This document shows positions 2,051-48,941 of a stretch of 48,941 nt of DNA, in pieces (positions within the stretch are counted from its first letter, which is position 1; each line of letters starts with the position of its first letter). Position numbers and translations under genes: made by a program. The notes beneath the pieces were generated by a model, which was not told the origin of the DNA, searched no databases, and saw only the letters and a list, made by a program, of their open reading frames with translations. This DNA comes from a virus (Duplodnaviria > Heunggongvirae > Uroviricota > Caudoviricetes): the IMG/VR virus record IMGVR_UViG_2802429253_000004. The stretch is one strand, 5' to 3'.

Positions 2051-2443
2051 GCAGGCTTTGCCTGTGAATATGTTCGCCCTTGCAGCGAGCTAAAGCTCGC
2101 GCCGGTTCGAGTCGCTACGCTCAAATATACCTCCTCCGGCACTTGCCGGAGGCATGGAGCAGCCTGATCATCCTTTTCGAAACGGCGCGTTTCGAACTAT
2201 ACAAAATCAATTTATATAAGGCCGAAATAAGGCCTACGGCCGGGCTTTGCAGGAGGAAGGGGCGAGCCTTATCAATAAACGTCGATAAATACGCACACAG
2301 TAGCCATCAGAACGCGATAAAACGTAAGAAACATCATTTCCTATTAGACATAGAAAACTTGTCTTATACGCAATGTAGTAAATTTCTATTGCCACATAGG
2401 AAAAGATTTCCTACCATCGTAGATATAATAAATGGAGATGGTT

Positions 2444-2731
2444 ATGGATAAAGATACTGTTTTAAAAATGTTGAATCCGGCTTGTTTAAAAAAAGCGGAT
2501 GAATGGGAATCTCCTACATGTGGAGAAGTTCGGGCAGTCATTGGCCTGACCGGAATGAGCGGCTCGCAGTTGGCCAAAAAACTAGGCTTAAAAGATAGTC
2601 GCAATGTTCGCAACTGGCAGATGTTAAAGGAGTCCACATCCAGATCCAGCATTCCGTATGCAGCCTGGGCGCTGCTGTGTTACTTCGCTGGGTTAGGGTT
2701 AATCTTCATTGATAACAAAACAGATGTTTGA
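2444..2731 (+). CDS. Small HTH DNA-binding protein, function unknown
   Basis: HTH-like segment LTGMSGSQLAKKLGL; GGAG ribosome-binding site 6 nt before the ATG at 2444. Confidence 0.5.
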   Translation: MDKDTVLKMLNPACLKKADEWESPTCGEVRAVIGLTGMSGSQLAKKLGLKDSRNVRNWQMLKESTSRSSIPYAAWALLCYFAGLGLIFIDNKTDV

Positions 2732-3262: not shown

Positions 3263-3610
3263 ATGTGGACGGTACTTTTTAGCCAGCGATTTGACGACTG
3301 GCTAAATGAGCAAGAAGACGCTCTTCAGGAAAAGGTTTTGGCTGATTTGAAAAAGCTACAGGTTTACGGACCTGAGTTACCCAGGCCATATGCCGATACC
3401 GTAAAAGGTTCTCGGTACAAAAATATGAAAGAGCTTCGCGTTCAGTTTTCTGGCCGTCCGATAAGAGCCTTTTATGCGTTCGATCCGATTCGCCGGGCCA
3501 TCGTTCTTTGTGCAGGAGACAAAAGTAACGATAAGCGGTTTTATGAAAAACTGGTGCGTATAGCTGAGGATGAGTTTGCAGCACATCTGAACACACTGGA
3601 GAGCAAGTAA
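3263..3610 (+). CDS. higB: Type II toxin, RelE/ParE superfamily, HigB-like (Gp49-like killer protein)
   Basis: About 115 aa; toxin-first order with an overlapping downstream HTH antitoxin (stop and start share 3608..3612). Confidence 0.65.
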   Translation: MWTVLFSQRFDDWLNEQEDALQEKVLADLKKLQVYGPELPRPYADTVKGSRYKNMKELRVQFSGRPIRAFYAFDPIRRAIVLCAGDKSNDKRFYEKLVRIAEDEFAAHLNTLESK

Positions 3611-3909: not shown

Positions 3910-3924
3910 TCAGAACGAATGATA

Positions 3925-3952
3925 AGCCCCTGTTGCAAAGGGGCTTTTTTGT
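3925..3952 (+). terminator. Rho-independent terminator after the higBA-like pair
   Basis: Stem AGCCCCT/AGGGGCT with 7-nt loop, then TTTTTT. Confidence 0.7.
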
Positions 3953-3955
3953 GCT

Positions 3956-4072
3956 TATAGAATTATATAATTATAGATTTATATAAAAAGTGCTTTACAG
4001 GTGGGAAAAAATTTCCTATGGTTATACCCGAAACCGAGCGATACCCGCCCTGGTTAAACCGGAGATAACCCG
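3956..4072 (+). promoter_or_regulatory. Promoter/leader cassette, copy A (AT-rich iterons, -35 TTTACA, 17-bp spacer, -10 TATGGT, conserved ~45-nt leader with GGAG ribosome-binding site)
   Basis: Near-identical to 13991..14118 and 20858..20974; each copy ends at the ATG of a different gene. Confidence 0.6.
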
Positions 4073-4453
4073 ATGAGCATGATTAAAATCCGCAAAAACG
4101 CTTTCCTTAAAATTCAAACTATCCTGGCTGGTTCTGTTGGCGTGATTTGCCGTTCTTCCTCAAGCCGCATCGATGACTGCTACGATGATGAGTATCGTGT
4201 GTCCTCATGCGATGAGGCTTTAACCTGGCTGAAGGAGAATCAGGAACGTGCCCAGGTATATCTGGAAACAGAGAACGGCAATCAGATGCTGCGTATTAGC
4301 GGTCGTTATGGATTTGAAACTACATTCATGGCCTATTTTAATCAGGCTTACTTTGACAAGGAGTTGGCCTGGTACACTGATCGCATGAGCAAAAGCGAGC
4401 CAGCCCCGATTACACCGCCGAACAATAAACCATTTTTATTCCTCGTTAAGTAA
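4073..4453 (+). CDS. Hypothetical protein driven by cassette copy A
   Basis: 126-aa ORF whose ATG directly follows the conserved leader. Confidence 0.5.
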   Translation: MSMIKIRKNAFLKIQTILAGSVGVICRSSSSRIDDCYDDEYRVSSCDEALTWLKENQERAQVYLETENGNQMLRISGRYGFETTFMAYFNQAYFDKELAWYTDRMSKSEPAPITPPNNKPFLFLVK

Positions 4454-4516
4454 ACACAATGTGCAAAGTGTCATTTTGACACTTTGCGAGTGTTAATATT
4501 GTGCGAGGAGGGTGCT

Positions 4517-6070: not shown

Positions 6071-6096
6071 AGCGCCCAAATCGGGCGCTTTGTTTT
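6071..6096. terminator. Bidirectional intrinsic terminator between convergent genes
   Basis: Stem AGCGCCC/GGGCGCT with a T-rich tail on the plus strand and a U-rich tail on the minus strand. Confidence 0.65.
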
Positions 6097-7237
6097 ATGG
6101 TTTTGCACCTGCGGCCAGTTTATCCGCAGATATTTTTATCAGTTCCTGTAGTGTCCTGGCTGGCAGGTTTGCATCCAGAACGCTGAGTATGCTGTTGTGA
6201 TCAGCCTGGTCGACTACTTTGCCTGTCGGTGGTAGTAGCTTGAGCTGAGGATTCAGGTTTTCGTCAAAGCTGATAAGTGCTCTGGCGTTTCTGAGCAGAT
6301 CAAGAAGTAAGGCTGATATCACATCATCTTTAGTCATTGTTGGTAGATTTAGTGCCGCTTTAGTTTTCTCCGTCGCCTTGTCAAACTCTTTGATTAGTGT
6401 CTTGCGGTAGTTTGGTTCTGTTAATAGCCGATGATGTTCTGTTGCCGTTCGGATAATCTTTGTTTCCTGATACAGTCGGTTGTATAGCATTCGCTCGTAT
6501 TCTGCCTTTAACACGCTGCTGATAGCGTTAAAGGCTTCAATGTAGGCCAGCTTGATATCCTTCACGCCTGGACCGTCGATACTTTCCATGAGCAAGGTAA
6601 ATCCGTCTTTTGTCATGCGATAGATTGTTATTTCGCGGTCGCTTCCTTCCAGCGGTCGTTGCTCTTTAAAGAAATGACGCGCCGCAGCCGTGCGAGGAAT
6701 GCGTAATGCATCGATGGCCATTACGATGGAATTGTTTGTGGTGCTGAATGCTTGGGCAACATCGGCTGAGGTTGTGAGTGGCTCGTTGTTGCACACCTTA
6801 ATGTAATACATCGGTTTGGCATTGAGTGTATCGACAACCTCACGAGCATTGTTTGGCGAGACGGTTACGGTCGCGGCCGTTTGCGCGTTCTGGTTGAAGT
6901 AGCAGTCTTCCAGCCGTTCGAATACATCCCACGCCTGATCGGTTTCGAGCATTTTAGCGTGACGTGCAGCCCCGCGTTCGGTCCAGAGGATGAGTTTTCT
7001 AACGTTATTCGCGATGGTTTGAAAATCTCTTAAAGAGATTTTCAAACTTTGGAGATCTGTACCTTTTACAACTATGAAATGTTTTCCTTCTGTAAACCGG
7101 GACTTATTACGGTGGTGATTTCTGTGAAGACATTCGACGCTACAGCCATATAGTTTGGCAAGCAGCTCCGTGGTGATAACGGGGAGCTGGTTATGCAGGA
7201 TAGGCTGTAGGGTGTTAACGGTCGGAAGCGTTTTCAT
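6095..7237 (-). CDS. Antirepressor-like regulator with ORF6N-type N-terminal domain and Rha domain
   Basis: 380 aa; N-terminal segment ending LWTERGAARHAKMLETDQAWDVFERL, central Rha-like segment ITIYRMTKDGFTLLMESIDGPGVKDIKLAYIEAFNAI. Confidence 0.7.
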   Translation of the reverse strand: MKTLPTVNTLQPILHNQLPVITTELLAKLYGCSVECLHRNHHRNKSRFTEGKHFIVVKGTDLQSLKISLRDFQTIANNVRKLILWTERGAARHAKMLETDQAWDVFERLEDCYFNQNAQTAATVTVSPNNAREVVDTLNAKPMYYIKVCNNEPLTTSADVAQAFSTTNNSIVMAIDALRIPRTAAARHFFKEQRPLEGSDREITIYRMTKDGFTLLMESIDGPGVKDIKLAYIEAFNAISSVLKAEYERMLYNRLYQETKIIRTATEHHRLLTEPNYRKTLIKEFDKATEKTKAALNLPTMTKDDVISALLLDLLRNARALISFDENLNPQLKLLPPTGKVVDQADHNSILSVLDANLPARTLQELIKISADKLAAGAKP

Positions 7238-7425
7238 TTTGCACCTCCCATAACTACTTTGGTTACGAGGGAGATTTTTGCGTCAGAAACAGCGTTATCG
7301 TTGCTGGCGATGCGCATAGCTTCGCGCTCGATGATTTCAGCCAGGCGGAATTTATCGGCGTATGAGGCTTTCTTGAGAAGGATCTTTACGAGGTTGACGT
7401 AATAGTCATGGGGTAGGTTTGTCAT
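7234..7425 (-). CDS. Small protein translationally coupled to the antirepressor gene (positionally Icd-like)
   Basis: 63 aa; its stop overlaps the ant start (ATGA); ribosome-binding site AAGGGA on the minus strand. Confidence 0.45.
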   Translation of the reverse strand: MTNLPHDYYVNLVKILLKKASYADKFRLAEIIEREAMRIASNDNAVSDAKISLVTKVVMGGAK

Positions 7426-7587
7426 TGTGATGATTCCCTTAAAGGTTAAGGATACTCACCACCGTCAGGTTCCAATCATTGGGTGGTGAGACGTGCAGGG
7501 TTGGAACTACCGGACACAATGACGAACCGGCGAGTCTTACGACTCCCCCGCACGCCCCACCATAATTTGGGTGTAGCAGTGCTTTAC

Positions 7588-7612
7588 GCATAAAAAAACC
7601 GCTAACGCGGTA
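7588..7612 (-). terminator. Intrinsic terminator on the minus strand within the leader of the antirepressor operon (3' end of a candidate small RNA or attenuator)
   Basis: Minus-strand hairpin ACCGCG..GCGGT followed by TTTTTTT; mutually exclusive pairing segments upstream (TCTACGG / CCGTAGA / CTACGG at 7626..7663). Confidence 0.4.
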
Positions 7613-7875
7613 TGCGCCATTGTGTCTACGGGGTTCCAATCCCGACCGTAGATTTTGCTACGGCTCGGAAAGTGTCCACCAATGGCGCATTCATGTCAAT
7701 ACGGCGGGATTTTAACAGAGGCAACCACATAGCGTGGGTTTGAATGCAGGGCTTTTAATTTTCTTGATATGCTAAGAACGGGAATGTATAGTTCCTGTAA
7801 GGAACAAATCAGTCCTAAATTGTGATGTTTTGTTAAAGTTGGGAACAAGAAAAAAATTTATTATGGGGATAAAAA

Positions 7876-8415: not shown

Positions 8416-8834
8416 TGAGTGAAGAAACAAAAAAACCGCCCTATTGAGGACGGTTCTTTCGTGCTGATCGGATTCGCAGTCCTTTCAGCATAACGTCGTT
8501 GTATAAATACAACCACGCAAGCACAAACAGCGTTCTTATTCTTACCTAACTGAATAAAATTGTCCAAATAAATTTGGTTTATTAGAGCACAAAAGCAAGT
8601 GATATTTTGTAATATGCGGTTAAGTCAATGAAAAACAATATTTTTTTATCCCTTCATTATGAAGGGGCGGCGGCGTAACATTACGCGGGGCCTTTTCGCC
8701 GATTCGCACCCGGGCACCGACTTTCAGGAAAGGATTATCCAACCGCCGTACCACGCAGGCACAAACAGCGTGCTTGCTCTCGCGTCATTTTCGTCGGTGG
8801 AGATGCCGTGGAACGGCCTGCGAGGGCCAATACA

Positions 8835-8954
8835 ATGAGGAAATACGTATGTATTTTGATCGTTGTTACTGGAGCTTTGTTTACGCCACATGGGGAGGGT
8901 TGGAAGATTACTGATAACGCTCTGAATGTGACGATAAACATTAGCAGCAAGTAG
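8835..8954 (+). CDS. Candidate 39-aa hydrophobic peptide (MRKYVCILIVVTGALFTPHGEGWKITDNALNVTINISSK)
   Basis: GAGGG ribosome-binding site 8 nt upstream; strong intrinsic terminator immediately downstream; no homolog recognised. Confidence 0.3.
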   Translation: MRKYVCILIVVTGALFTPHGEGWKITDNALNVTINISSK

Positions 8955-8959
8955 CGATT

Positions 8960-8982
8960 AGGCCCCTTCGGGGGCCTTTTTT
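8960..8982 (+). terminator. Strong rho-independent terminator
   Basis: Stem AGGCCCC/GGGGCCT with loop TTCG, then TTTTTT. Confidence 0.8.
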
Positions 8983-9204: not shown

Positions 9205-9453
9205 TTACTTCTGGTTGTATTGAGCCTTGAGTAACTCAAAAGATTTTGTCAGCACTTCTTTCAATGACATATCCATTGAGCTGGCGAATGTTTTGTACTC
9301 ACGTTTAAATTCAGGGTCGACGTTAAACGCCATTTGTGCTCCACCTGATTTGGTTCTGGTCGGCGTTTCAGTCGGGTCGAAAACCTGCGGTTGTTCGATT
9401 GATGGCGGTACGCCTTTGCTGTTCTTCTTTGGTGGTTTTGATGGTGCGGCCAT
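9205..9453 (-). CDS. Small partition protein, ribbon-helix-helix ParG-like centromere-binding protein
   Basis: 82 aa directly downstream of parA; unstructured basic N-terminus then an RHH-like segment MAFNVDPEFKREYKTFASSMDMSLKEVL. Confidence 0.6.
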   Translation of the reverse strand: MAAPSKPPKKNSKGVPPSIEQPQVFDPTETPTRTKSGGAQMAFNVDPEFKREYKTFASSMDMSLKEVLTKSFELLKAQYNQK

Positions 9454-9465
9454 GTGTATCCCCTC

Positions 9466-9497
9466 TTATATAAATCTATAAAACTATAATTATATAT
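9466..9497. repeat. AT-rich 15-bp iteron pair (TATAGAWTTATATAA family, inverted orientation) downstream of the partition operon
   Basis: TATATAAATCTATA and AAACTATAATTATATA; same motif family as at 3956, 10172, 10246, 13991, 15218, 19728 and 20858. Confidence 0.7.
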
Positions 9498-10165
9498 TAC
9501 GCGGCAGTAGTCAGAGCCTCAAGCTGGTTGATAATCCCCTGAATAACGTCGTCTGCCTTTTTGCGTGGCGCAACGTATGAACACTCAATGAGGCTTAAGC
9601 CCTTATCCTGAGCTTTGCTCAGAGCTGGCTTGTGGGGAATGTACTTATCGACAACAAAGTATGGCGTATTAGCCAGGTACTCTTGGGCTTCGATGTAGTC
9701 AGCTTCGTTTTCAGCCGCGCCGGAAAACACCATGCAAATTTTCTTGATTGGTACACCCTTTTTAACGATGCCGTGAGCTGTGTTAACGGTGGTTTCCAGG
9801 TCATCGGTAGAGAATCTGGTTGGCAAAATAACCATATCCAGAAATTCAGAGAGCTTCGGTACTGATTCAGATGCGTAGGCACCGCCATCGACGATAACCA
9901 GGTCGTATACTTCTGATTCGATGATTTTCTGGACTTGTGATGGTGTGCCGCACGGCTGCGCCGCGATTGCTGGTTCGATATTGTTGGCCATTCTGCGTTG
10001 TACCCAACGCGTTACCGTTCCGTTAAGCACATCCATATCGATCAGGCATACATTCCAGCCAGCCTTTGCATAAGCAACTGCTAAAGCACGAGCAATGGTT
10101 GATTTGGTTACGCCGCCTTTTCCGTTGAAAATACCTACAGATATAGTCATTTGTCGAGACTCCAT
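9497..10165 (-). CDS. parA: Partition ATPase ParA, small type Ib (ParF/Soj-like)
   Basis: 222 aa; deviant Walker A GKGGVTKST near the N-terminus. Confidence 0.85.
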   Translation of the reverse strand: MESRQMTISVGIFNGKGGVTKSTIARALAVAYAKAGWNVCLIDMDVLNGTVTRWVQRRMANNIEPAIAAQPCGTPSQVQKIIESEVYDLVIVDGGAYASESVPKLSEFLDMVILPTRFSTDDLETTVNTAHGIVKKGVPIKKICMVFSGAAENEADYIEAQEYLANTPYFVVDKYIPHKPALSKAQDKGLSLIECSYVAPRKKADDVIQGIINQLEALTTAA

Positions 10166-10171
10166 ATGTTT

Positions 10172-10277
10172 GATTATATAATTCTATAAATCTATATTTA
10201 TAGAATGAGGTAAGCATAACCAACTTTTTGGCGGATGAAAAGTGTTTTATATAATTATATAAATCTATAATCATATA
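10172..10277. repeat. Two blocks of AT-rich iterons immediately upstream of parA (candidate centromere/operator)
   Basis: Blocks 10172..10207 and 10246..10277 each carry two or three copies of the 15-bp unit in both orientations. Confidence 0.7.
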
Positions 10278-10300
10278 AGCGGGCGTTAGCCCGCTTGCAG

Positions 10301-11424: not shown

Positions 11425-11462
11425 GTCTCATCAATCGTGAATGGTGGGTTATTTATACATTA

Positions 11463-11579
11463 CCACATTTAGTGGTTTTCACATGGTAAGACGAGAGGTG
11501 GACCACAAATAGAAGGTTATTTTTTGTTTCGCCCATTGAAAAACTCACGATATGTGGTTTTAATACCACATATCGTGGT
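11463..11579. promoter_or_regulatory. Divergent cI/cro promoter region with at least two full operators (ACCACATTTAGTGGT at 11463..11477, ACCACATATCGTGGT at 11565..11579) and a half-site
   Basis: Repeated ACCAC-N5-GTGGT dyads in the 175-bp intergenic region; larger palindrome CACGATATGTGGTTTTAATACCACATATCGTG. Confidence 0.6.
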
Positions 11580-11598
11580 TTTAACTGGAGTTCGTTAA

Positions 11599-13571: not shown

Positions 13572-13949
13572 GTGAGACGCGATCTGGATAGCTTGTTTGA
13601 GCTATGGGCGCTGTGGGTGCGCAATGGCTGCAACGCCCGTAGCGGTTTCGCGTCGATGTTAGAAATGATGATGGTTACGCGCTGCCAGTTTACCGGAGGG
13701 GGCGGCGCACCAAATGACTCACTGGAAACCAGTATCGAGGGAGCGGTGACGGCCCTCACGGTAGTTGATGAGACTGCGGCGCTGGTTGTCCGAATTGAAT
13801 ACGGGGCGTGGGAGATTCGGGGCCTCGACATAAATGCACCGCATATTGATAAAGCCCACGCCCTTTCTCTTAGTCTCAGACAGTATCGCCGGAAGCTGGC
13901 AAAAGCCAGGACGTATGTTGTCGACTACTTGAAAAAGAGAAGAGAGTGA
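13572..13949 (+). CDS. Putative antitermination protein Q-like late regulator
   Basis: 125 aa; N-terminal LFELWALWVRNGCNARSGFASML resembles small Q-type antiterminators; last gene before a promoter cassette; GTG start. Confidence 0.45.
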   Translation: MRRDLDSLFELWALWVRNGCNARSGFASMLEMMMVTRCQFTGGGGAPNDSLETSIEGAVTALTVVDETAALVVRIEYGAWEIRGLDINAPHIDKAHALSLSLRQYRRKLAKARTYVVDYLKKRRE

Positions 13950-13990: not shown

Positions 13991-14118
13991 GAATATCGGA
14001 AATCTATAAATATATAATTATAGATTTATATAAAAAGTGCTTTACAGGTGGGAAAAAATTTCCTAAGGTTATACCCGAAACCGAGCGATACCCGCCCTGG
14101 TTAAACCGGAGAAATCTG
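13991..14118 (+). promoter_or_regulatory. Promoter/leader cassette, copy B
   Basis: Near-identical to 3956..4072 and 20858..20974; directly downstream of the Q-like gene. Confidence 0.6.
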
Positions 14119-15186
14119 ATGAATAAACAAGTAATTATTTCTGACTGGATCAACAACCCTAACAGCCTGTTGAGCACTGATACTGGCTATAGATTACGTC
14201 ATGTTAATGGCCGTATGGTCAAAAGCGATGAGCACGAAACCTTTTTCGTTGTTGAAGACGATGGACGTCTTTATGAGGATGGTCACTCTTATGAATCCCA
14301 AACAGGTTGTATCCCTGCGGAGTTGGTAGACGTAACAGAAAAGCTGCGCAAAGCATGGCTTGAACAGCAGCAGCGCGGAGATGATTACGTAAATACCTAT
14401 CAGGAACGCCAGAACGCGCGTCTTGCCCGATATATTGCTCGTGCAGAAAAAGCTAGAAAAGAAGGTGCGGTGGCGCATAAGCGAGCGCATGAACTGTTGG
14501 ATGTGATCCCGTTAGGCCAGCCGATTTTAGTTGACCATTATAGCGCGAAAGGCCATCGCCGCCGTTTGTCTAAAGCTGATGCGTTATTCAGAAAATCGTT
14601 TGTTGAGTGTGAAAGCAGAGCATCGTACTACGAAAGCAAAGCCGCAGGTGTCGGCCGTAATGGAGTTTCGTCTGATGATCCTGATGCGCTATTTAAGTTG
14701 CTTCGTAAGCTGCAAGGCTGCATGAAGTCACACATCAAAATGAAGGCCGCAAATAAGGCTATTCGCAAATACAAAAAAGACCAATTACAGCAGCTTTCCG
14801 CATTAATTGACCTTGAGTTTACTGAAAGCGAAGCCAAAGAGTTACTCGCCGGAGATTTCTGTGGGCACATTGGCTTTCCTTCATACTCACTGAGTAACAA
14901 TAACGCCGAAATCAAACGCCTACAGAGCCGTATTAAAGAGCTTGAATCGGTCAAGTCTGTAACAGGATCACAGCGCGAAGAATACGACGGCTTTTCTATG
15001 GAGGTAGATCCAGAGGATAACCGCATCCTGTTTTATTTCCCTGGCAAACCAGAGGCAAACATTCGTTCGCTGCTTAAATCACGCGCCTTTAAGTGGAGTC
15101 CAACCCGTAATGCATGGGTTCGCAAGATTACTCCAAACGCCCTGGCTGATGCCCGATATCTGAAAGAATCGCTATTGAAAGCCTGA
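14119..15186 (+). CDS. Hypothetical 355-aa protein, first gene after cassette copy B
   Basis: Long ORF with basic, coiled-coil-like central region; function not recognised. Confidence 0.6.
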   Translation: MNKQVIISDWINNPNSLLSTDTGYRLRHVNGRMVKSDEHETFFVVEDDGRLYEDGHSYESQTGCIPAELVDVTEKLRKAWLEQQQRGDDYVNTYQERQNARLARYIARAEKARKEGAVAHKRAHELLDVIPLGQPILVDHYSAKGHRRRLSKADALFRKSFVECESRASYYESKAAGVGRNGVSSDDPDALFKLLRKLQGCMKSHIKMKAANKAIRKYKKDQLQQLSALIDLEFTESEAKELLAGDFCGHIGFPSYSLSNNNAEIKRLQSRIKELESVKSVTGSQREEYDGFSMEVDPEDNRILFYFPGKPEANIRSLLKSRAFKWSPTRNAWVRKITPNALADARYLKESLLKA

Positions 15187-15242
15187 CAGTAAGCCTACGG
15201 CGGGATGTCTCCCGCCGTATATAGAATTATATATTTATATAA

Positions 15243-15545
15243 ATGTATAAGGACGCCTCGACAATGAAACGCAAAATTATTAACCCCCAAGATGTGATTA
15301 ATTTCCTGACCGATCACCCATGTTCAAAAGTGGACGTAATCGCGGAGCACATTGGTGTGTCGCAGAACTCTATGCGTTGCAGACTGAGAAGCATGGTTGC
15401 CGAAGGACAGATAACAACCAGGAAAATAAATGGTTGCCTGTACTACTCCGCTAAACCGGAATTGCCATTTGGCATGAATCCTAACTCCATGTTGTTTAAC
15501 ACCTTATTAGCCAAAGTTAAGCCGTTGAGAGGGGCTGTGGCATGA
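15243..15545 (+). CDS. Small winged-helix-like DNA-binding protein
   Basis: Segment DVIAEHIGVSQNSMRCRLRSMVAEGQI is HTH-like; start uncertain (15243 or 15264). Confidence 0.45.
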   Translation: MYKDASTMKRKIINPQDVINFLTDHPCSKVDVIAEHIGVSQNSMRCRLRSMVAEGQITTRKINGCLYYSAKPELPFGMNPNSMLFNTLLAKVKPLRGAVA

Positions 15546-19605: not shown

Positions 19606-19729
19606 TACCGCCTGTGATTGGGTAAAGCCCATCTACCTGACTGATCACGACATCGATGTTATGGACCGCCAGACAAAGAAAGATATTCTGGCTCATAACA
19701 GGGCATGGGAAATCAACTGCCAAAAGTAA
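19520..19729 (+). CDS. Spanin outer-membrane lipoprotein subunit (Rz1/LysC-like), nested in an alternate frame
   Basis: Signal peptide with lipobox LIASC; overlaps the 3' end of the i-spanin gene out of frame. Confidence 0.5.
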   Translation: MYSRVLTIWLMTMLIASCGSRGSVPVVVDTACDWVKPIYLTDHDIDVMDRQTKKDILAHNRAWEINCQK

Positions 19730-19890
19730 TATATATTTCTATAAATATATAGTTACAACATTCTATACGCTTTTCTCATGAGCGCACGCATCAACCATGT
19801 TTGTCTGATATGCCGCCGCGCCCAAAAATCCTGAATTTATTGGCTGGGATTTTCGTGCGCGGCGCCACACCAGACAAACAAATCAAATAT

Positions 19891-20274: not shown

Positions 20275-20862
20275 ATGGAGGCAATTGTATTGTTTAATCT
20301 GATTTATGCAGATCCCCCCTGGGAATACAAAGACAAGTGTAAGGATGGGAATCGTGGCGCTGGTTTTAAGTATCCAACGATGAAAGCTGAGGAGATTGCT
20401 CGTATTCCTGTCTGGCAGCTTGCTAATCCTGAATCGTGTTTGTTGGCTATGTGGTGGGTTCCGACTCAGCCAGAAGAAGCGTTGCTGGTGGTGAAAGCAT
20501 GGGGATTCAGGCTTATGACCATGAAGGGCTTCACATGGAACAAATGTGGTAGCCGACAGCCAGACAAGCTGGTGATGGGGATGGGACATATGACTCGTGC
20601 AAACAGTGAAGATTGCTTGTTTGCGGTAAAAGGCAAATTACCGACACGTCTTGATGCGGGGATCATTCAGTCGTTTACATCGCCTCGTCTGGAGCATTCT
20701 CGGAAGCCTGATGTGGTCCGTGACAAACTGGTAAAGCTGTTAGGCGATGTTCCTCGTATTGAGCTGTTTGCTCGCGGTGATTTACCTGCTGGCTGGCATG
20801 GCTGGGGCAACCAGTGCAACGGAGGTATCCAGTTGCATGATGCTCTCTGGCAAGTGTCATAG
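20275..20862 (+). CDS. MT-A70-family N6-adenine DNA methyltransferase
   Basis: DPPW catalytic motif (IYADPPWEY) near the N-terminus; 195 aa; no adjacent restriction endonuclease. Confidence 0.8.
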   Translation: MEAIVLFNLIYADPPWEYKDKCKDGNRGAGFKYPTMKAEEIARIPVWQLANPESCLLAMWWVPTQPEEALLVVKAWGFRLMTMKGFTWNKCGSRQPDKLVMGMGHMTRANSEDCLFAVKGKLPTRLDAGIIQSFTSPRLEHSRKPDVVRDKLVKLLGDVPRIELFARGDLPAGWHGWGNQCNGGIQLHDALWQVS

Positions 20863-20974
20863 AATTATATAATTATAGATTTATATAAAAAGTGCTTTAC
20901 AGGTGGGAAAAATTTTCCTAAGGTTATACCCGAAACCGAGCGATACCCGCCCTGGTTAAACCGGAGATAACCCG
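20858..20974 (+). promoter_or_regulatory. Promoter/leader cassette, copy C
   Basis: Near-identical to copies A and B; ends at the ATG at 20975. Confidence 0.6.
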
Positions 20975-21196
20975 ATGAAAGAACAAGACCGTAAAGTAAT
21001 GCGTATTTCCTTCAAACGTGCGACTGAGCAGCAACGCAAAGAGTTCCTGGCTGATGATGTAGCGGCCGTTTATGACCTCATGAAAGAGGTTGTGGAATCA
21101 GGGAACTACACGGCGGCAAAGATGCTTAAACTGCAATTCTTGCTGGGCGACCTGAAATACAAATCCGAAGTTGTCGCCGGACGACGCGAGCATTAA
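20975..21196 (+). CDS. Hypothetical 73-aa protein driven by cassette copy C
   Basis: ORF directly after the conserved leader; terminator downstream. Confidence 0.45.
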   Translation: MKEQDRKVMRISFKRATEQQRKEFLADDVAAVYDLMKEVVESGNYTAAKMLKLQFLLGDLKYKSEVVAGRREH

Positions 21197-21216: not shown

Positions 21217-21246
21217 CGAGCCTCGGCAATTGCCGGGGCTTTTTTA
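21217..21246 (+). terminator. Rho-independent terminator
   Basis: GC-rich hairpin (GCCTCGGCAATTGCCGGGGC) followed by TTTTTT. Confidence 0.6.
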
Positions 21247-22112: not shown

Positions 22113-22826
22113 ATGATGCATTTAAAAAATATTAGTGCGCCGCTTATTGATCCCCGTGGCAAACATCCAGATGTGCTACCGCTTTTTACTGAAGACGGAA
22201 GAGATTGGTATGAGGAACAGAAGAAATTTCAGCCTCATACTTTAAAGATTGCGTATGACAATAACGGCATTATCCGCAGTGTATCGAAGGATGTATCGTT
22301 GCTTTGCCCGGATGGGATGAGTGTTATTGAGTTACCTGATACTGATGAGTATCGAAAAGTAGATAACACAGGTGATTGGCTCGTCAAAGATGTTCAAATT
22401 GTGAAGCGTGAAGGTACAGAGCACCGAGAAAACTCACTGATATCTATTGGTGCCGAGGCTGTTCCGTTTAAGTTTGAATTATCCCAACTGGTAACAATGC
22501 GTATCAGTGACGAATGGGGAGAAGTTCAAGCCCGTGCTCAGTATGCAAATGGCGAAAACCAGTATCTGATTCACTATCAGGCGGCTGATGGCCGTGCTAC
22601 TACAGAGTGGTTCTGTGAGTCGATGCTGATTGCGATGGAGGATAAACGTCATCCTGGCTGTCCTGTTTTTGCTTGTATTGATCTGCCAGAAGGCGCGGTA
22701 CTTGAAGACGACAAAGAAGAATGGTCGCCTGATGGCGAACTTGTCATTACCGGAATCGTGGATGGTAAGCCGAGATACTCTCGCATTGAGGTAAATAACG
22801 GCCACATCTGTTTGATACCAGAGTAA
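22113..22826 (+). CDS. Tail fiber assembly (Tfa)-like N-terminal domain fused to an uncharacterised C-terminal domain
   Basis: N-terminal ~110 aa align with the Tfa proteins at 46836..47369 and 47398..47925 (MMHLKNI..WYEEQ..FQP.TLK..YD.NG.I); C-terminal ~125 aa unrelated to them. Confidence 0.6.
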   Translation: MMHLKNISAPLIDPRGKHPDVLPLFTEDGRDWYEEQKKFQPHTLKIAYDNNGIIRSVSKDVSLLCPDGMSVIELPDTDEYRKVDNTGDWLVKDVQIVKREGTEHRENSLISIGAEAVPFKFELSQLVTMRISDEWGEVQARAQYANGENQYLIHYQAADGRATTEWFCESMLIAMEDKRHPGCPVFACIDLPEGAVLEDDKEEWSPDGELVITGIVDGKPRYSRIEVNNGHICLIPE

Positions 22827-25793: not shown

Positions 25794-26350
25794 TCATCGT
25801 GTGGTTGATGGTGTTGTTATGCAGGGTGTATTCACTGTGTGCTGTAGCGTCGCTCGCTGGCTGTCTGTGGGTGAGCACGAGCATCGTTTCATCGTCCGGC
25901 AGAATTGGGTCCTTCTGGCCAAAAGCGTTGGATGCGGGTCATTCGAACCCCGATGTTCGGCTAGCTAAACGTGAAAAAAGTTAGGTTAAAAGTTGCGGTA
26001 AAAGAAATTTACTCATCTCATTGAAAAATATTGGGAAAACGTGATTTTTTGCTGTGCTTGCGATGGTAAAAAGAAAGTAGAAAATTTTCTTTTAGATCAT
26101 CAAGATACGCGCAGATCTTTAACTAATGTAAGGCTGTTTTGATAAAAATCGTTATAAATCATGCAAATACATCCAATCTTTTAACCAAAACACCATATCA
26201 AGATCCTTTTTACTTATAAAAACTTAATAAAATCAGATGATTATGCTGGTTTGTGTGATTTTTTATGAGTAAAAAGATCGTCATTTTTCTCTTTTAGTAT
26301 CAATAAGTTAAACAGTTTTCTTTAACCTGTTGTGTTATGGCGGTTAAAAA

Positions 26351-26941
26351 ATGGCTCTAAAAATCGAATATTTACCAGTCGGTAAGCTGCTCAGATACGC
26401 CAAAAATTCACGGACTCATTCAGATGAGCAAGTTGAACAGTTGGTGAACAGTATCCGTGAGTTCGGTTTCACTAATCCTGTGCTGATCGATGAAAAGAAT
26501 GAACTGATTGCGGGGCATGGGCGGCTTGCAGCAGCCGAAATTCTGGAAATGGATAAAGTTCCAGCGATTCGGTTGAGTAACCTTTCTGAAAAACAGAAGA
26601 AGGCTTACAGGATTGCAGATAACAAGCTGGCCTTAAATGCTGGCTGGGATATGCAGCTTCTGGCCGAAGAAGTCAAAGCGTTAATGGATGATGATTTTGA
26701 TATTGATCTGCTTGGGTTTAATGATGCAGAGCTTGACGAAATGTTAAGCGATGAACAGCCGCAGGAAGAAGACGATAATTCTTCCCCTGTTGTTCAAATT
26801 AAGTACCTGGCTATTGATAAAGAACGTATTCCCGCGACGGATATGGAAATTGCATTGTTGCTGGATGTTTATCGTCAGTACCACGACGCGCATGAAACTC
26901 ATGAGGGATTTGTTCAGTATCTTGCTAATGGTTGCAAGTAA
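26351..26941 (+). CDS. ParB N-terminal domain protein immediately upstream of the terminase genes
   Basis: Paralog of 23061..23684 (LIAGHGRLAAAEILEMDKVPAIRL); acidic C-terminal half. Confidence 0.7.
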   Translation: MALKIEYLPVGKLLRYAKNSRTHSDEQVEQLVNSIREFGFTNPVLIDEKNELIAGHGRLAAAEILEMDKVPAIRLSNLSEKQKKAYRIADNKLALNAGWDMQLLAEEVKALMDDDFDIDLLGFNDAELDEMLSDEQPQEEDDNSSPVVQIKYLAIDKERIPATDMEIALLLDVYRQYHDAHETHEGFVQYLANGCK

Positions 26942-44763: not shown

Positions 44764-46833
44764 GTGAGTAAATTATTATTTACGATGACTGACGCCGGGC
44801 GTCAGGAGCTGGTTAATGCCAACAAAACAGGAACAAATAAAGTTGAGATTGTTTCTGTTGGTTTAGGTAGTAGATATTATGTCACGTCAACTTCACAAAC
44901 AAATATAACAAACGAAATAAAACGACTTACCACAATAGGTGGCAAAGTTGTTTCCCCTGATACAATTCATGTAACAGCGAAGGATGATAGTAAAGATGAG
45001 TATGTTGTCCATACAATAGGATTGTATACGAATAAGGGTACGTTGTTTGCTGTATACTCACAAGAACAAGCAATAATAAATAAAGCATCATCTACTATCG
45101 CTTTAATATCAAGTGATATAGCAATTAAAACTCTTGATACTAAAAATATTACATTTGGTGATATTGAGTTTATTAATCCTCCCGCGACCGAAACTGTTGT
45201 TGGGGTGGCAAGATTTGCTAATGAACAAGAAATTGATGCAGGTACAGATGATTCCCTTGCTGTTTCAGCAAAGCGGCTTAAGCAAGCCATTGTGAAACAT
45301 GAGCAATCACGTAATCATCCTGATGCAACTTTAACCTCAAAAGGCTTTGTTCAACTTAGCAGCGCCACCAATAGCACGTCTGAAACGCTTGCTGCGACGC
45401 CTAAGGCTGTTAAGGCAGCATATGACCTGGCTAACGCCAAATACACCGCACAGGACGCTACCACAGCGCGAAAAGGGATTGTTCAGCTCAGTAGTGCCAC
45501 CAACAGCACGTCTGAAACGCTGGCAGCAACACCAAAGGCTGTTAAGGCAGCGTATGATCTTGCGGCCGGAAAGGCTCCGTCCAATCACACGCATTCGTGG
45601 GAGCAGATAACAAATGTGCCTGTAGCTTCACTGACTGTAAGGGGAATAACTCAGCTCAGTAGTGCCACCAACAGCACGTCTGAAACACTGGCCGCGACAT
45701 CGAAAGCTGTAAAGGTGGTAATGGATGAAACGAACAAGAAAGCGCCCCTGAACAGTCCGGCGCTGACCGGAACACCAACAACACCAACTGCGCCAAAAGG
45801 TACTAACAATACTCAGATCGCAAGCACGGCTTATGTTATGGCTGCGATCGCTGCCCTCGTGGACTCATCGCCTGACGCACTGAATACGCTGAACGAGCTG
45901 GCTGCGGCGTTGGGCAACGACCCGAATTTTGCGACCACCATGACTAACGCGCTTGCGGGTAAGCAACCGAAAGATGCCACCCTGACGGCGCTGGCCGGGC
46001 TTGCTACTGCGGCAGACAGGTTTCCGTATTTTACGGGGAATGATGTCGCCAGCCTGGCAACTCTGACAAAAGTCGGGCGGGATATTCTTGCGAAATCGAC
46101 CGTTGCCGCCGTTATCGAATACCTCGGTTTACGAGAACTCGGCACAAGCGGGGAAAAAATACCGTTACTCAGTACGGCGAATACCTGGACCAATCGACAA
46201 ACATTCAGTGGTGGCCTTTCTGGGGAACTGTCCGGCAATGCCGCTACTGCAACAAAGCTGAAAACAGCACGAAAAATTGCTGGAGTTGGTTTTGATGGTT
46301 CTAGCGATATTTCAATTAGTGCCAAAAATGTCAATGCATTTGCACTCCGACAAACAGGTAATACTGTTAATGGTGATACATCCGTTGGATGGAATTGGGA
46401 TAGTGGTGCATATAACGCCCTAATTGGTGGTGCATCTGCATTAATTCTTCACTTTAATATAAATGCTGGTAGCTGTCCTGCCGTACAATTCCGTGTGAAT
46501 TATAAAAATGGTGGCATTTCCTACAGGTCGGCTCGTGATGGTTATGGGTTTGAATTAGGTTGGTCAGATTTCTATACCACGACACGAAAACCTTCAGCGG
46601 GAGATGTTGGTGCATATACTCAGGCAGAATGTAACTCAAGGTTTATTACAGGTATTCGCCTTGGCGGTCTGTCATCTGTTCAGACATGGAATGGTCCCGG
46701 CTGGTCTGACAGGTCAGGTTACGTTGTTACGGGTTCAGTTAACGGAAACCGTGATGAATTAATTGATACAACACAGGCAAGGCCAATTCAGTATTGCATT
46801 AATGGGACGTGGTATAACGCGGGGAGTATTTAA
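44764..46833 (+). CDS. Tail fiber protein (constant N-terminal part plus variable C-terminal part, current orientation)
   Basis: 689 aa; internal fiber repeats; a gix-like crossover site lies in-frame at 46112..46137; C-terminus ends ..YCINGTWYNAGSI. Confidence 0.85.
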   Translation: MSKLLFTMTDAGRQELVNANKTGTNKVEIVSVGLGSRYYVTSTSQTNITNEIKRLTTIGGKVVSPDTIHVTAKDDSKDEYVVHTIGLYTNKGTLFAVYSQEQAIINKASSTIALISSDIAIKTLDTKNITFGDIEFINPPATETVVGVARFANEQEIDAGTDDSLAVSAKRLKQAIVKHEQSRNHPDATLTSKGFVQLSSATNSTSETLAATPKAVKAAYDLANAKYTAQDATTARKGIVQLSSATNSTSETLAATPKAVKAAYDLAAGKAPSNHTHSWEQITNVPVASLTVRGITQLSSATNSTSETLAATSKAVKVVMDETNKKAPLNSPALTGTPTTPTAPKGTNNTQIASTAYVMAAIAALVDSSPDALNTLNELAAALGNDPNFATTMTNALAGKQPKDATLTALAGLATAADRFPYFTGNDVASLATLTKVGRDILAKSTVAAVIEYLGLRELGTSGEKIPLLSTANTWTNRQTFSGGLSGELSGNAATATKLKTARKIAGVGFDGSSDISISAKNVNAFALRQTGNTVNGDTSVGWNWDSGAYNALIGGASALILHFNINAGSCPAVQFRVNYKNGGISYRSARDGYGFELGWSDFYTTTRKPSAGDVGAYTQAECNSRFITGIRLGGLSSVQTWNGPGWSDRSGYVVTGSVNGNRDELIDTTQARPIQYCINGTWYNAGSI
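46112..46137. promoter_or_regulatory. gix/cix-like recombination site inside the tail fiber gene (TTATCGAATACCTCGGTTTACGAGAA)
   Basis: Matches the Mu gix consensus TTATCCAAAACCTCGGTTTACAGGAA at most positions; inverted partner at 48807..48833. Confidence 0.75.
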
Positions 46834-46835
46834 CG

Positions 46836-47369
46836 ATGATGCACTTAAAAAACATTACTGCTGGCAACCCTAAAACAAAAGAGCAATACCAGCTAACGAA
46901 ACAATTTAACATCAAATGGCTTTATACAGAGGATGGAAAAAACTGGTATGAGGAACAAAATAACTTTCAGCCTGATACGTTGAAAATGGTCTATGACCAC
47001 AACGGCGTTATTATTTGTATTGAAAAGGATGTTTCAGCAATTAATCCAGAAGGCGCAAGCGTCGTTGAATTACCTGATATTACAGCAAATCGCCGGGCTG
47101 ATATTTCGGGTAAATGGATGTTCAAAGATGGCGTAGTGATAAAGCGAACTTACACCGAGGAAGAGCAGAGGCAACAAGCGGAAAATGAAAAGCAAAGCCT
47201 GTTGCAACTTGTCAGGGATAAAACCCAGCTATGGGACTCACAGCTACGGCTGGGCATCATTTCCGACGAGAATAAACAAAAATTAACCGAGTGGATGCTC
47301 TACGCGCAGAAAGTCGAATCCACAGACACCTCCAGCCTGCCAGTAACGTTTCCCGAACAACCAGAATGA
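46836..47369 (+). CDS. Tail fiber assembly protein (Tfa/U)
   Basis: 177 aa; Tfa-type N-terminal domain directly after the fiber gene. Confidence 0.8.
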   Translation: MMHLKNITAGNPKTKEQYQLTKQFNIKWLYTEDGKNWYEEQNNFQPDTLKMVYDHNGVIICIEKDVSAINPEGASVVELPDITANRRADISGKWMFKDGVVIKRTYTEEEQRQQAENEKQSLLQLVRDKTQLWDSQLRLGIISDENKQKLTEWMLYAQKVESTDTSSLPVTFPEQPE

Positions 47370-47397: not shown

Positions 47398-47925
47398 TTA
47401 CTCTGGTTTTTGTGGCCATTCTGGCTTTGCCGTATCCACGCGGCTGACCAGAACGCTGTAGCGTTCCCATGACTCCAGTCGTGTACGCTCCTCATCTGTT
47501 GCCATATTCAATCTGACAGCGCGTTCCAGTGGCTGGATAACTGATTCAGCTTCGGAAAGTAACGCGGACTTTTGTGATTCAGCCTGTTGTTGCTGTTCGT
47601 CTTCCGTATAAATCCGTTTAACCACAGCTCCATCCTTAAACATCCACTTCCTTGAATCATCGGCACGACGATTAGCTGTTATATCGGGAACCTCAACGAC
47701 GCTAAAACCTTCAGGATTAAGCGTGGAGGCATCTTTAGTGATGGCGACAATAATATTATTTTCGTCGTAAACAATCTTTATTGTGTCTTCCTGAAAATTA
47801 CTTACTTCCTCATACCAGTTTTTATCATCTTCGGACCATAACCATATAACATCAAAATTCTTTGTTAGCTGATATTGTTCTTTTGTTTTTGGATTTCCTG
47901 ATCTGATATTTTTTAAATGCTGCAT
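47398..47925 (-). CDS. Alternative tail fiber assembly protein (Tfa/U')
   Basis: 175 aa; paralog of 46836..47369 on the opposite strand inside the invertible segment. Confidence 0.8.
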
Positions 47926-47928
47926 AAT

Positions 47929-48816
47929 TTATACCTGTGCAACGTTATACCATGTACCATTGATGTATTTCTGAATTGGTCTGAAAATAGCTTCATCATC
48001 GCCATCAACTTCACCAATAATTCTTAATCCGGTAAGTGCGTGTCCGGCAATCTCATAACGCCCGCCGCGTGACATTAATTGAACAACTCGCGTACCAAGC
48101 CGGACATCTCCCACATAGCGAGAGTCAAAATTGCTGTAATTGGATGGGATAACCTGTCCGTGCACATTCAGACCGTGCCCCATAGTAACAAGACCAGTAT
48201 TAAGCGCGATATAGAATGGACGAAGACCATTCCAGCTACCGTACTGGTCACCACTGGCAGTAAATAACAGATACAAGCTGCCACCATCCTGTCGCAGAAT
48301 TGCACCATAATTTCCTGCAATCATCCTTAAAGCATTCTGTGATGTGGTTATCAGTTCCCCAGTCATGGTATCGCCAGCACGATTCCAGTCGCGACGCCAG
48401 CCAGGCGCGTAGGTGTCACCATGATTAATATAAGTAAATTGCGCTTTTGCTGTACCGTTCGTTGCAGTTGTTGGAGTAGTGACGCGAATAGTCATTGCGC
48501 TCTTGGTGCCCATCACTTCAACCACCGAGCCAGCAAGTTGAATATTCCCGCAACCTGTATCTGTAATAATTTTATTATTGGCATAAGACCATGAACCTTT
48601 GCACATCCAGTATGGGTGATTAAATGCCCCCTGAGACTCCAGCCACGCAATAAACTGTGCTGTCGTCCAGTTGCTGCTATCTCCTCCAATATTGATACTT
48701 CCGCTGGCCGCTTTCGCTGCACCAATATTTTTTGTGAAGGTATCTTTTCCTGGAATATCCGCACCGTTCTGGTTTTTCTGCAATGCGCCAGAAGCCTTGT
48801 TTATCGTTTCCTGCAA
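47929..48816 (-). CDS. Alternative tail-fiber variable C-terminal segment (Sv'), expressed only after inversion
   Basis: Open frame begins exactly at the gix core; an LGL-QETINK junction continues the fiber frame after inversion; C-terminus ..YINGTWYNVAQV parallels the plus-strand fiber. Confidence 0.8.
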   Translation of the reverse strand: MQETINKASGALQKNQNGADIPGKDTFTKNIGAAKAASGSINIGGDSSNWTTAQFIAWLESQGAFNHPYWMCKGSWSYANNKIITDTGCGNIQLAGSVVEVMGTKSAMTIRVTTPTTATNGTAKAQFTYINHGDTYAPGWRRDWNRAGDTMTGELITTSQNALRMIAGNYGAILRQDGGSLYLLFTASGDQYGSWNGLRPFYIALNTGLVTMGHGLNVHGQVIPSNYSNFDSRYVGDVRLGTRVVQLMSRGGRYEIAGHALTGLRIIGEVDGDDEAIFRPIQKYINGTWYNVAQV

Positions 48817-48833
48817 ACCGAGGTTTTTGCGAA
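48807..48833. promoter_or_regulatory. gix/cix-like recombination site (inverted partner of 46112..46137)
   Basis: Reverse complement TTCGCAAAAACCTCGGTTTGCAGGAAA shares the ACCTCGGTTT core and dyad arms with the site in the fiber gene. Confidence 0.75.
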
Positions 48834-48941
48834 TTGCCTCTGTATCGTCTGAACGATATTTTTTCCCGCTTTTAGCAACAATCGCGGTTTAGAAAGTATG
48901 CAATATGGTTATGCGAGAGTGTCAACTTTTGACCAGAATTT

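Follow-up and report, generated by a model that had tools for sequence, protein, structure and literature searches.

Cassette Copies and Cargo Genes

The window analyzed here is a whole stretch of DNA of 48,941 nt from a tailed phage (Caudoviricetes; IMG/VR record IMGVR_UViG_2802429253_000004). It carries a short promoter and leader cassette in three near-identical copies on the plus strand. Copy A (3956-4072) fronts a 126-amino acid (aa) gene (4073-4453) to which no function was assigned. Copy B (14003-14118) fronts a 355-aa gene with a DUF3560 domain (14119-15186), and copy C (20858-20974) fronts a 73-aa gene (20975-21196). A repeat search of the window returned the copies as gapless units of 117-120 nt that were 90-98% identical (3957-4076, 14004-14123, and 20859-20978). 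The 33-nt promoter core was matched three times at one mismatch or fewer, with no match expected. The three copies proposed in an earlier note on this DNA are therefore real. The extents given there stood for copies A and C, while homology in copy B begins at about 14003 and not at 13991. In a three-way MAFFT alignment the similarity ran from the AT-rich repeats to the start codon plus one A. The TTTACA and TAWGGT hexamers, the 17-bp spacer, the leader ACCCGAAACCGAGCGATACCCGCCCTGGTTAAACCGGAGA and the GGAG were all found as described. The three downstream proteins are mutually unrelated, so each copy fronts a different gene. As homology also ends at the start codon, no coding sequence was duplicated and the copies are not duplication scars that include it.

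Each copy has the same anatomy. In copy A an array of four 8-bp units (TATAGAAT TATATAAT TATAGATT TATATAAA; 3956-3988, plus strand) ends 6 bp upstream of the -35 hexamer. The equivalent arrays lie at 14003-14035 in copy B and 20858-20890 in copy C. A sigma-70-type promoter, TTTACA-17-TATGGT, follows at 3994-4022 (-35 at 3994-3999, -10 at 4017-4022). Copies B (14041-14069) and C (20896-20924) have TAAGGT as the -10. The copy A promoter fits the sigma-70 consensus at 9 of 12 positions, including A2 and T6, and copies B and C fit at 8 of 12. All three Salmonella copies were also flagged as promoters in a consensus scan. Transcription is predicted to start near 4029-4031, approximately 7 nt downstream of the -10. 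The spacer contains the palindrome TGGGAAA-AAA-TTTCCTA (4002-4018, plus strand), the last two bases of which are the first two of the -10. It recurs at 14049-14065 and 20904-20920. The leader is 43 nt long with a core of 36 nt (GAAACCGAGCGATACCCGCCCTGGTTAAACCGGAGA; 4030-4065 in A, 14077-14112 in B, 20932-20967 in C, all plus strand). It holds a weak 5'-proximal hairpin (4032-4055) and a GGAG Shine-Dalgarno (SD) sequence (4061-4064) located 8 nt before the ATG.

The cargo genes are flanked by hairpins or terminators, all on the plus strand. An intrinsic terminator (3924-3946) insulates copy A from the higBA operon. A 25-bp perfect palindrome or hairpin (4463-4487; GCAAAGTGTCA-TTT-TGACACTTTGC) separates cargo gene A from a 101-aa Xre-type helix-turn-helix (HTH) gene. 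It has no T-tract and for this reason could be an operator of the next gene rather than a weak terminator. A GC-rich hairpin follows cargo gene B (15197-15218), also without a T-tract. A strong intrinsic terminator follows cargo gene C (21218-21241) and precedes about 26 kb of plus-strand late genes. It is kept at the equivalent position in a Salmonella relative (L003). The DUF3560 cargo family is widespread on conjugative plasmids. In an F-like Yersinia plasmid the DUF3560 gene is located between unnamed genes and traM and the transfer genes, which was read as the leading region. A scan of genome contigs with the DUF3560 protein gave only distant Clostridia matches. None of the cargo genes has a homologue in two distant phage-plasmid relatives, L035 and L037. 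Each cargo gene thus has its own promoter and its own terminator or hairpin, and is missing from these relatives. Because each copy drives one lineage-specific accessory gene that is followed by a hairpin or terminator, the units are moron-like.

Conservation of the Leader

Twenty full natural copies were retrieved from metagenomes with a promoter-anchored pattern. Because the pattern was anchored in the promoter the sample is unbiased for the leader. Nucleotide diversity (pi) among the 20 copies was 0.008 in the leader core, 0.059 in the spacer, 0.096 in the discriminator, 0.16 in the -10 hexamer, and 0.33 in the spacer between SD and ATG. Two of the 36 core positions varied in this sample. 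Copies obtained by other routes added a second variable loop position, and 34 of the 36 positions were invariant overall. The observed pattern of constraint bears out the suggestion that conservation exceeds the needs of a shared promoter, as the core is far less diverse than the -10 hexamer or the spacer. This very strong constraint suggests that the leader has a further, sequence-specific role. A hidden open reading frame (ORF) across the leader was rejected, since lineages differ by 1-nt indels in both the discriminator and the SD-ATG spacer, and these disrupt every frame.

A search of related elements recovered the cassette in four lineages, namely the E. coli type, S. Weltevreden, S. salamae, and an IMG/VR contig. 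Two copies only were present in the stretch recovered from the last of these. In every lineage the copies are homogenised within the genome, and lineage-specific substitutions are common to all copies of one genome. Between lineages the cassette is approximately 87-89% identical and the leader core 92-95% identical. Whole genomes are 70-77% identical and the cargo proteins share approximately 65% amino acid identity. The alleles seen in the SD-ATG spacer and in the discriminator form a mosaic over copies and lineages. The homogenised copies, the mosaic alleles and the identities between lineages together indicate that the triplication is old, that it has been kept by gene conversion, and that purifying selection acts on the leader. 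Arrays are also present in more distant relatives, which lack the cassette and all cargo genes. Local alignment of the cassette core to L035 and L037 gave null-level scores. In L035 a consensus LexA box (TACTGTTTAAAAACACAGTA; 3526-3545) takes the place of the cassette ahead of the gene that corresponds in position to cassette A, and the slot appears to be SOS-controlled in that lineage.

The similarity of the copies could be a mere by-product of duplication and ongoing gene conversion, with a leader that does no more than supply a ribosome-binding site. Homogenisation within each genome fits this explanation, as do mosaic copies in which, for instance, the SD-ATG alleles AACCCG and ATCTG follow neither copy nor lineage, and the weakness of the hairpin together with its lack of covariation. 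However, across genomes and lineages the leader core is 7-40 times less diverse than its neighbors in the same conversion tract (spacer, -10, discriminator, and SD-ATG spacer). It also stays essentially unchanged (92-95% identical) between lineages where the cargo proteins are only about 65% identical. Conversion alone is considered an improbable explanation.

Folding of the leader predicted no more than a modest hairpin near the 5' end (-9.6 kcal/mol, z -1.2 to -2.7), with the SD sequence left unpaired. The covariation test was uninformative because all eight hairpin pairs are invariant across the four lineages. The leader could also be the target of a trans-acting antisense RNA, for example C4-like or isrK-like, or a known cis-regulatory RNA. 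The phage does encode a C4 antisense RNA and an isrK-like RNA. Paired and unpaired leader positions are alike invariant, as extended base-pairing would give. The C4-leader duplex energy was nevertheless equal to genomic background and that of isrK was in the top 13% only, and pairing of either RNA with the leader was rejected on this basis. No leader-like or complementary sequence was found elsewhere in the genome when 11-mers and their reverse complements were searched at one mismatch or fewer, and no leader 11-mer had a clustered reverse-complement match. Rfam gave no gathering-score match in the cassettes, and only noise at E up to 10. An RNA partner of this kind is very unlikely, and the riboregulator suggested in the earlier note found no support in these searches.

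Probable Operators in the Cassette

The palindrome in the spacer was found a fourth time outside the cassettes, in perfect form (TAGGAAAAGATTTCCTA; 2397-2413, plus strand). There it occupies the same register in the promoter TTGCCA(2389-2394)-17-TACCAT(2412-2417) of a 99-aa gene (2432-2731, plus strand). The product has an HTH-like motif and is a candidate autoregulated repressor that would recognize the palindrome. The consensus TAGGAAA-N3-TTTCCTA has four sites at one mismatch or fewer, against 0.19 expected at two mismatches or fewer. In two Salmonella lineages all four of the four syntenic palindromes are perfect. In relatives without the cassette the 99-aa gene and the palindrome were both observed to be missing. 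The shared register and this co-occurrence fit an autoregulated repressor that also controls the three cassettes, and the palindrome is probably a repressor operator. Control of the cassette by the CI-like repressor was rejected, as the presumed CI/Cro operators (ACCACAT.T..GTGGT) are not in the cassette. These operators are several palindromes at 11440-11580, in the stretch that separates the CI-like repressor gene from the rightward early operon.

The array units have a TATA box every 8 bp. The in-phase motif TATA-N4-TATA-N4-TATA was matched 12 times in the window and never in 100 shuffles of it. The AT-rich iterons described earlier are thus present. They are not restricted to the cassettes and form in-phase arrays at eight loci (3956, 9469, 10177, 10250, 14011, 15220, 19732, and 20866), all between 3.9 and 20.9 kb, in the half of the genome given to maintenance and early functions. 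One array (9466-9497, minus strand) lies between parA and an 82-aa gene. A second (15212-15252, plus strand) lies past the hairpin of cargo gene B. A winged-helix (MarR-like) gene has its ribosome-binding site immediately after this array. A third (19729-19760, plus strand) is located between the lysis genes and tRNA-Met. The parA promoter region (10173-10278, minus strand) has the layout of the cassette, with an array (10278-10245), a -35, a 17-bp spacer and a -10 (TTTTCA(10241-10236)-17-TATGCT(10218-10213)), plus a second array in the parA leader (10202-10173). The motif (C)CTCGACAA(A)TG was noted just past an array at the starts of parA (10150-10165), the winged-helix gene (15243-15266), and the gene following the Q-like gene in L037 (6375-6388). 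It hints at a second small conserved translation-start module tied to the arrays.

The parA gene (9497-10165, minus strand; probable true start ATG at 10150) encodes a ParF-like partition ATPase. The protein is 222 aa long, of the small Walker type without an N-terminal DNA-binding domain, with Pfam matches to CbiA and ParA. It matched ParF (4dzz) at E=3e-4 and scored 78.5 bits against NCBIfam ParA_partition, which is under the equivalog cut-off of 180. The 82-aa gene (9205-9453, minus strand) lies directly downstream of parA. In an AlphaFold model the 82-aa protein has a disordered basic region (1-40) and two helices (47-59 and 62-79). This is the architecture of ParG/omega-type ribbon-helix-helix centromere binders, and the protein is a candidate ParG-like centromere-binding protein whose fold is predicted from this resemblance.

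Arrays of the same kind were observed with related protein pairs in other elements. L038 (NZ_CP037908.1) is an unrelated 28.5-kb MOBC/MPF_T conjugative plasmid that carries cfr. Its ParA and small protein are 45% and 39% identical to those of the window. Its arrays are found at the parA promoter, between the par genes, and in two intergenic gaps of the type IV secretion system (T4SS) genes, and it has no Q-like gene. The distant relatives L035 and L037 were recovered via homologues of the Q-like protein described below. In both, arrays with differing, lineage-specific sequences flank the parA core promoter and also occur at dispersed syntenic places, including just past the Q-like gene and past an MT-A70 gene. 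Because parA-flanking arrays recur with the ParA and small-protein pairs in L038, L035 and L037, the arrays follow the par module. They are probably centromere and operator sites of the partition proteins. Arrays as RepA iterons are unlikely, as they are not beside repA and track the par genes. The T4SS arrays of L038 (11987-12020 and 13762-13790) stand directly upstream of ribosome-binding sites, and partition-type arrays in transfer operons may be a more general regulatory device. The same record (L002/L038, NZ_CP037908.1) contains a 100% identical cassette fragment at 1444-1491, consisting of the array, the -35 and half the spacer and truncated by IS26. Beside the fragment lies a higBA block with 96% identity to the window, and the plasmid captured part of the maintenance region of a phage-plasmid.

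A Q-Like Gene Upstream of Copy B

A 125-aa gene (13572-13949, plus strand) ends 54 bp before copy B. Its product is remotely homologous to the Q antiterminator of phage 21 and has a C-terminal HTH like sigma region 4. The protein by itself had no Pfam match. A profile search of 1.8 billion representatives gave 128 relatives, from which a 75-sequence profile was built. This profile matched the phage 21 Q structures (6JNX_P/6P18_P) at E=1e-4. Ten members of the family matched the PHROG 'Q-like' family and five matched PF06530. With an AlphaFold model (pLDDT 83) the top Foldseek match was Q21 (prob 0.8-0.9, E approximately 0.4), followed by sigma region 4, although these E-values are weak. On the profile, PHROG, PF06530 and Foldseek matches the Q-like label used earlier is reasonable, as a statement of remote homology.

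The position of this gene raises the possibility that the three cassettes are Q-utilisation (PR'-like) promoters. The Q21-like protein would modify RNA polymerase so that it reads past the cargo terminators into the lysis and structural genes, with the leader as the loading site. The canonical Q cassette has a Q gene, a promoter, a pause element, a terminator, and late genes in this order (10.1101/651190). Copy C is followed by the 73-aa ORF, the terminator at 21218-21241 that is also kept in Salmonella, and the late genes, in which a consensus scan gave no stronger promoter-like site over about 26 kb. The extreme constraint on the leader is also in keeping with a loading site.

Several observations stand against Q promoters of the known kind. 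Q21 binds direct-repeat TGAGCA subsites of a Q-binding element (QBE) between the -35 and -10 (PMC6606751). The cassette spacer has no such direct repeats and holds a palindrome instead, which it shares with a promoter unrelated to the late genes. The only candidate for a -10-like pause element with T6 in the initial transcribed region is GATANN, at approximately +11 to +16. Its variable positions are exactly 5 and 6, and in 18 of the 20 natural copies the sixth base is C rather than T. The distant relatives hold the Q-like gene (approximately 60% identity) and lack the cassette. Copy A is in the plasmid-maintenance region, distant from the late genes, and the hairpins past cargo genes A and B have no T-tracts. 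Arrays as Q-binding sites, by analogy with the 8-bp direct-repeat subsites of Q21, were rejected because the same arrays occur in a conjugative plasmid without a Q-like gene. A different binding mode of this distant Q homologue is possible. Utilisation of the cassettes by the Q-like protein is regarded as doubtful, though it is the main alternative, and it could hold together with the operator model of array and palindrome.

Genome Context

The first 127 bp of the window recur exactly at its end (1-127 and 48815-48941), as found in the repeat search. This indicates that a complete genome was assembled as a circle, with the overlap itself most likely an artefact of assembly. The Yersinia phages vB_YpM_39/41/44 are 98% identical to the window and their annotation is nearly all hypothetical. 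The tested par segment (9.1-10.7 kb) is shared at 95-99% identity by approximately 60 plasmids, 47-50 kb in size and non-mobilizable, whose hosts are E. coli (among them ATCC 25922, plasmid NZ_CP009073.1), E. albertii, E. fergusonii, and Klebsiella. This segment was also matched by three diverged plasmids of Salmonella. Yersinia phage HQ103 and the pSLy3 group were considered and found to be unrelated elements. The genome encodes an IncFII-like RepA, the ParF-like ParA, HigBA (higB2 in a related phage record), and a CI-like repressor. A P1-type C4/isrK-ant module, lysis genes and myovirus structural genes were also identified. No integrase was found among approximately 50 window proteins scanned, with the tail genes left out of the scan. 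This result and the RepA, par, HigBA and myovirus gene content identify the element as a phage-plasmid.

Several other features were recorded. The C4 antisense RNA and isrK-like RNA (7479-7664, minus strand) are followed directly by a small ORF and by the gene of a 380-aa ORF6N/Rha antirepressor (6095-7425, minus strand). The block is a P1 immI-like anti-immunity module within a CI-type phage. A full-length match to ryfA RNA (124 bits; 8686-8982, plus strand) adjoins the par genes. ryfA is a type I toxin-antitoxin-like locus, and the match would then be a second addiction module besides higBA. A Hin-type invertase gene is located beside oppositely oriented tail-fiber and assembly genes (84-638 and 47398-48816), suggesting an invertible host-range segment. 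A tail-fiber-assembly-like fragment (22181-22273) is 78% identical to 46919-47011. The 689-aa tail-fiber gene holds three diverged 93-nt repeats (45339-45731) spaced by 132 and 168 nt. An AT-rich non-coding gap of 370 bp without a consensus promoter (25984-26351) precedes a ParB-nuclease-like gene and the terminase genes. It could house the packaging site or an activator-dependent late promoter.

Discussion

On balance the cassette is probably a multi-input unit made up of a ParG-type array, a repressor palindrome across the spacer and -10, an ordinary sigma-70 core, and a constrained leader. The 117-120-nt unit would act as a portable expression cassette of the phage-plasmid, whose three copies are kept alike by gene conversion and on which several regulators probably converge. 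The array would be bound by the small ParG-like partition protein and would modulate the promoter from just upstream of the -35. The arrays of the genome are probably both dispersed centromere sites and operators. A dedicated dimeric repressor probably binds TAGGAAA-N3-TTTCCTA. For this role the 99-aa HTH-like protein is the strongest candidate, and its own promoter would be controlled likewise. The leader, with its 5'-proximal hairpin and GGAG, would give every cargo gene an identical 5' end and ribosome-binding site, and may have a further sequence-specific role. The earlier note expected a shared regulatory input in the form of an antitermination site, an RNA-binding regulator or a riboregulator. 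A shared input is indeed likely. Its clearest candidates are DNA operators, the array and the palindrome, which that note had not identified as operators, and signals for Q loading were not evident.

The anatomy and number of the copies, the match statistics, the concerted evolution, the pattern of constraint and the joint occurrence of sites with genes were observed directly. A number of points weigh against this interpretation. The assignments of proteins to sites, the direction of regulation and the transcription start are all deduced from sequence. Searches with the 82-aa protein detected no sequence similarity to ParG, omega, or any PDB chain or family, and the monomer model of it shows no ribbon strand. 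For the 99-aa protein no Pfam match reached significance. The 101-aa Xre-type HTH protein, whose gene lies a short way downstream of copy A, is found together with the cassette just as consistently and is an alternative binder of the palindrome, though it has its own 25-bp palindrome at 4463-4487. The leader hairpin is weak, and its pairs, all invariant, give no covariation. The invariance of 34 of the 36 core positions is also more than this model accounts for, as a stabilising hairpin and an SD sequence would tolerate far more change.

This constraint allows a more speculative proposal. The 36-nt leader could conceivably be a previously undescribed cis-acting element, either a loading site (on DNA or nascent RNA) of the divergent Q21-family antiterminator or the site of an RNA-binding regulator, fused in three copies to partition and repressor operators. 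If so, one small cassette would integrate the segregation state, a dedicated repressor and antitermination, and would set expression for the plasmid state or the lytic state. A related possibility is that ParG-type arrays within operons, including the T4SS operon of the conjugative plasmid, form a KorB-like global silencing network run by a ribbon-helix-helix protein.

Clinical and commensal E. coli, the reference strain ATCC 25922 among them, commonly carry phage-plasmids of this type, whose annotation is almost wholly 'hypothetical'. The cassette offers a compact entry into the coupling of plasmid maintenance with phage and accessory-gene expression. It is also a clean natural case of long-term concerted evolution of a regulatory module, with a 36-nt leader under stronger constraint than the -10 hexamer of its own promoter. 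It may further be the region on which a very divergent antiterminator of the Q21 family acts. Partition proteins appear to be global regulators here, as KorB is in RK2 and omega in pSM19035.

The cassette units resemble morons. In the HK97/HK022 comparisons of Juhala, Hendrix and colleagues, these are reportedly autonomous promoter-gene-terminator units that carry accessory genes missing from related phages. Unlike those, the three units described here share one homogenised promoter and leader and are wired to partition and repressor operators. In the prophage-plasmid N15 the sopC-like centromere sites are reported to be scattered and near regulatory regions (Ravin & Lane 1999; Grigoriev & Lobocka 2001). 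The arrays of the element studied here, as putative centromere sites, would share this scatter and placement. N15 differs in having a type Ia SopAB system with palindromic sites and no repeated promoter and leader cassette.

The arrangement of the inferred operators mirrors that of RK2/RP4 (IncP-1), where a partition protein doubles as a global regulator through dispersed operators. At korAp of RK2 a KorB operator is located just upstream of the -35 and a KorA operator overlaps the -10 (PMC2680271), which corresponds to the array and palindrome of the cassette. There is no homology between the systems. KorB is a large HTH ParB-type CTPase that acts on a 13-bp palindrome, whereas the candidate here is an 82-aa ParG-like protein on arrays of 8-bp repeats. 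The host element here is a phage-plasmid, and the near-identical promoter copies with a conserved leader have no counterpart in RK2.

Small binders that use repeat arrays at several separate promoters are known from pSM19035, in which the ribbon-helix-helix centromere binder omega recognizes arrays (parS1-3) that are both centromeres and operators (PMC5016525). That Gram-positive plasmid has 7-bp heptads, no shared leader, and no sequence similarity to the window detectable with the tools used. Eight arrays are present here, several of them within operons and without a promoter of their own. In TP228, ParG coats 4-bp boxes with 4-bp AT-rich spacers (8-bp period) upstream of the par operon, and the region is both operator and centromere (PMC3130281). 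The ParF-ParG/parH/OF system of TP228 shares with the window a ParF-like ATPase, a small protein with an N-terminal tail that is flexible there and predicted to be disordered here, and arrays of 8-bp period. In contrast to TP228 the boxes here are of TATA type and not ACTC, the arrays are spread over about 17 kb and not clustered, and the ribbon-helix-helix fold of the 82-aa protein is a prediction.

The lambdoid Q/PR' region of the phage 21 type likewise has a Q21-family gene immediately upstream of a strong-looking promoter and a terminator before the late genes (10.1101/651190, PMC6606751). The window differs from it in having three promoter copies and a cargo ORF before the terminator, and in lacking a direct-repeat QBE and a conserved -10-like pause element. 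Literature searches gave no paper on this cassette, and none of these searches was aimed at the cassette itself. The single ingredients of the cassette are of known kinds, and it is their combination that is new: three homogenised copies in a phage-plasmid, type Ib arrays dispersed within operons, and a nearly invariant 36-nt leader.

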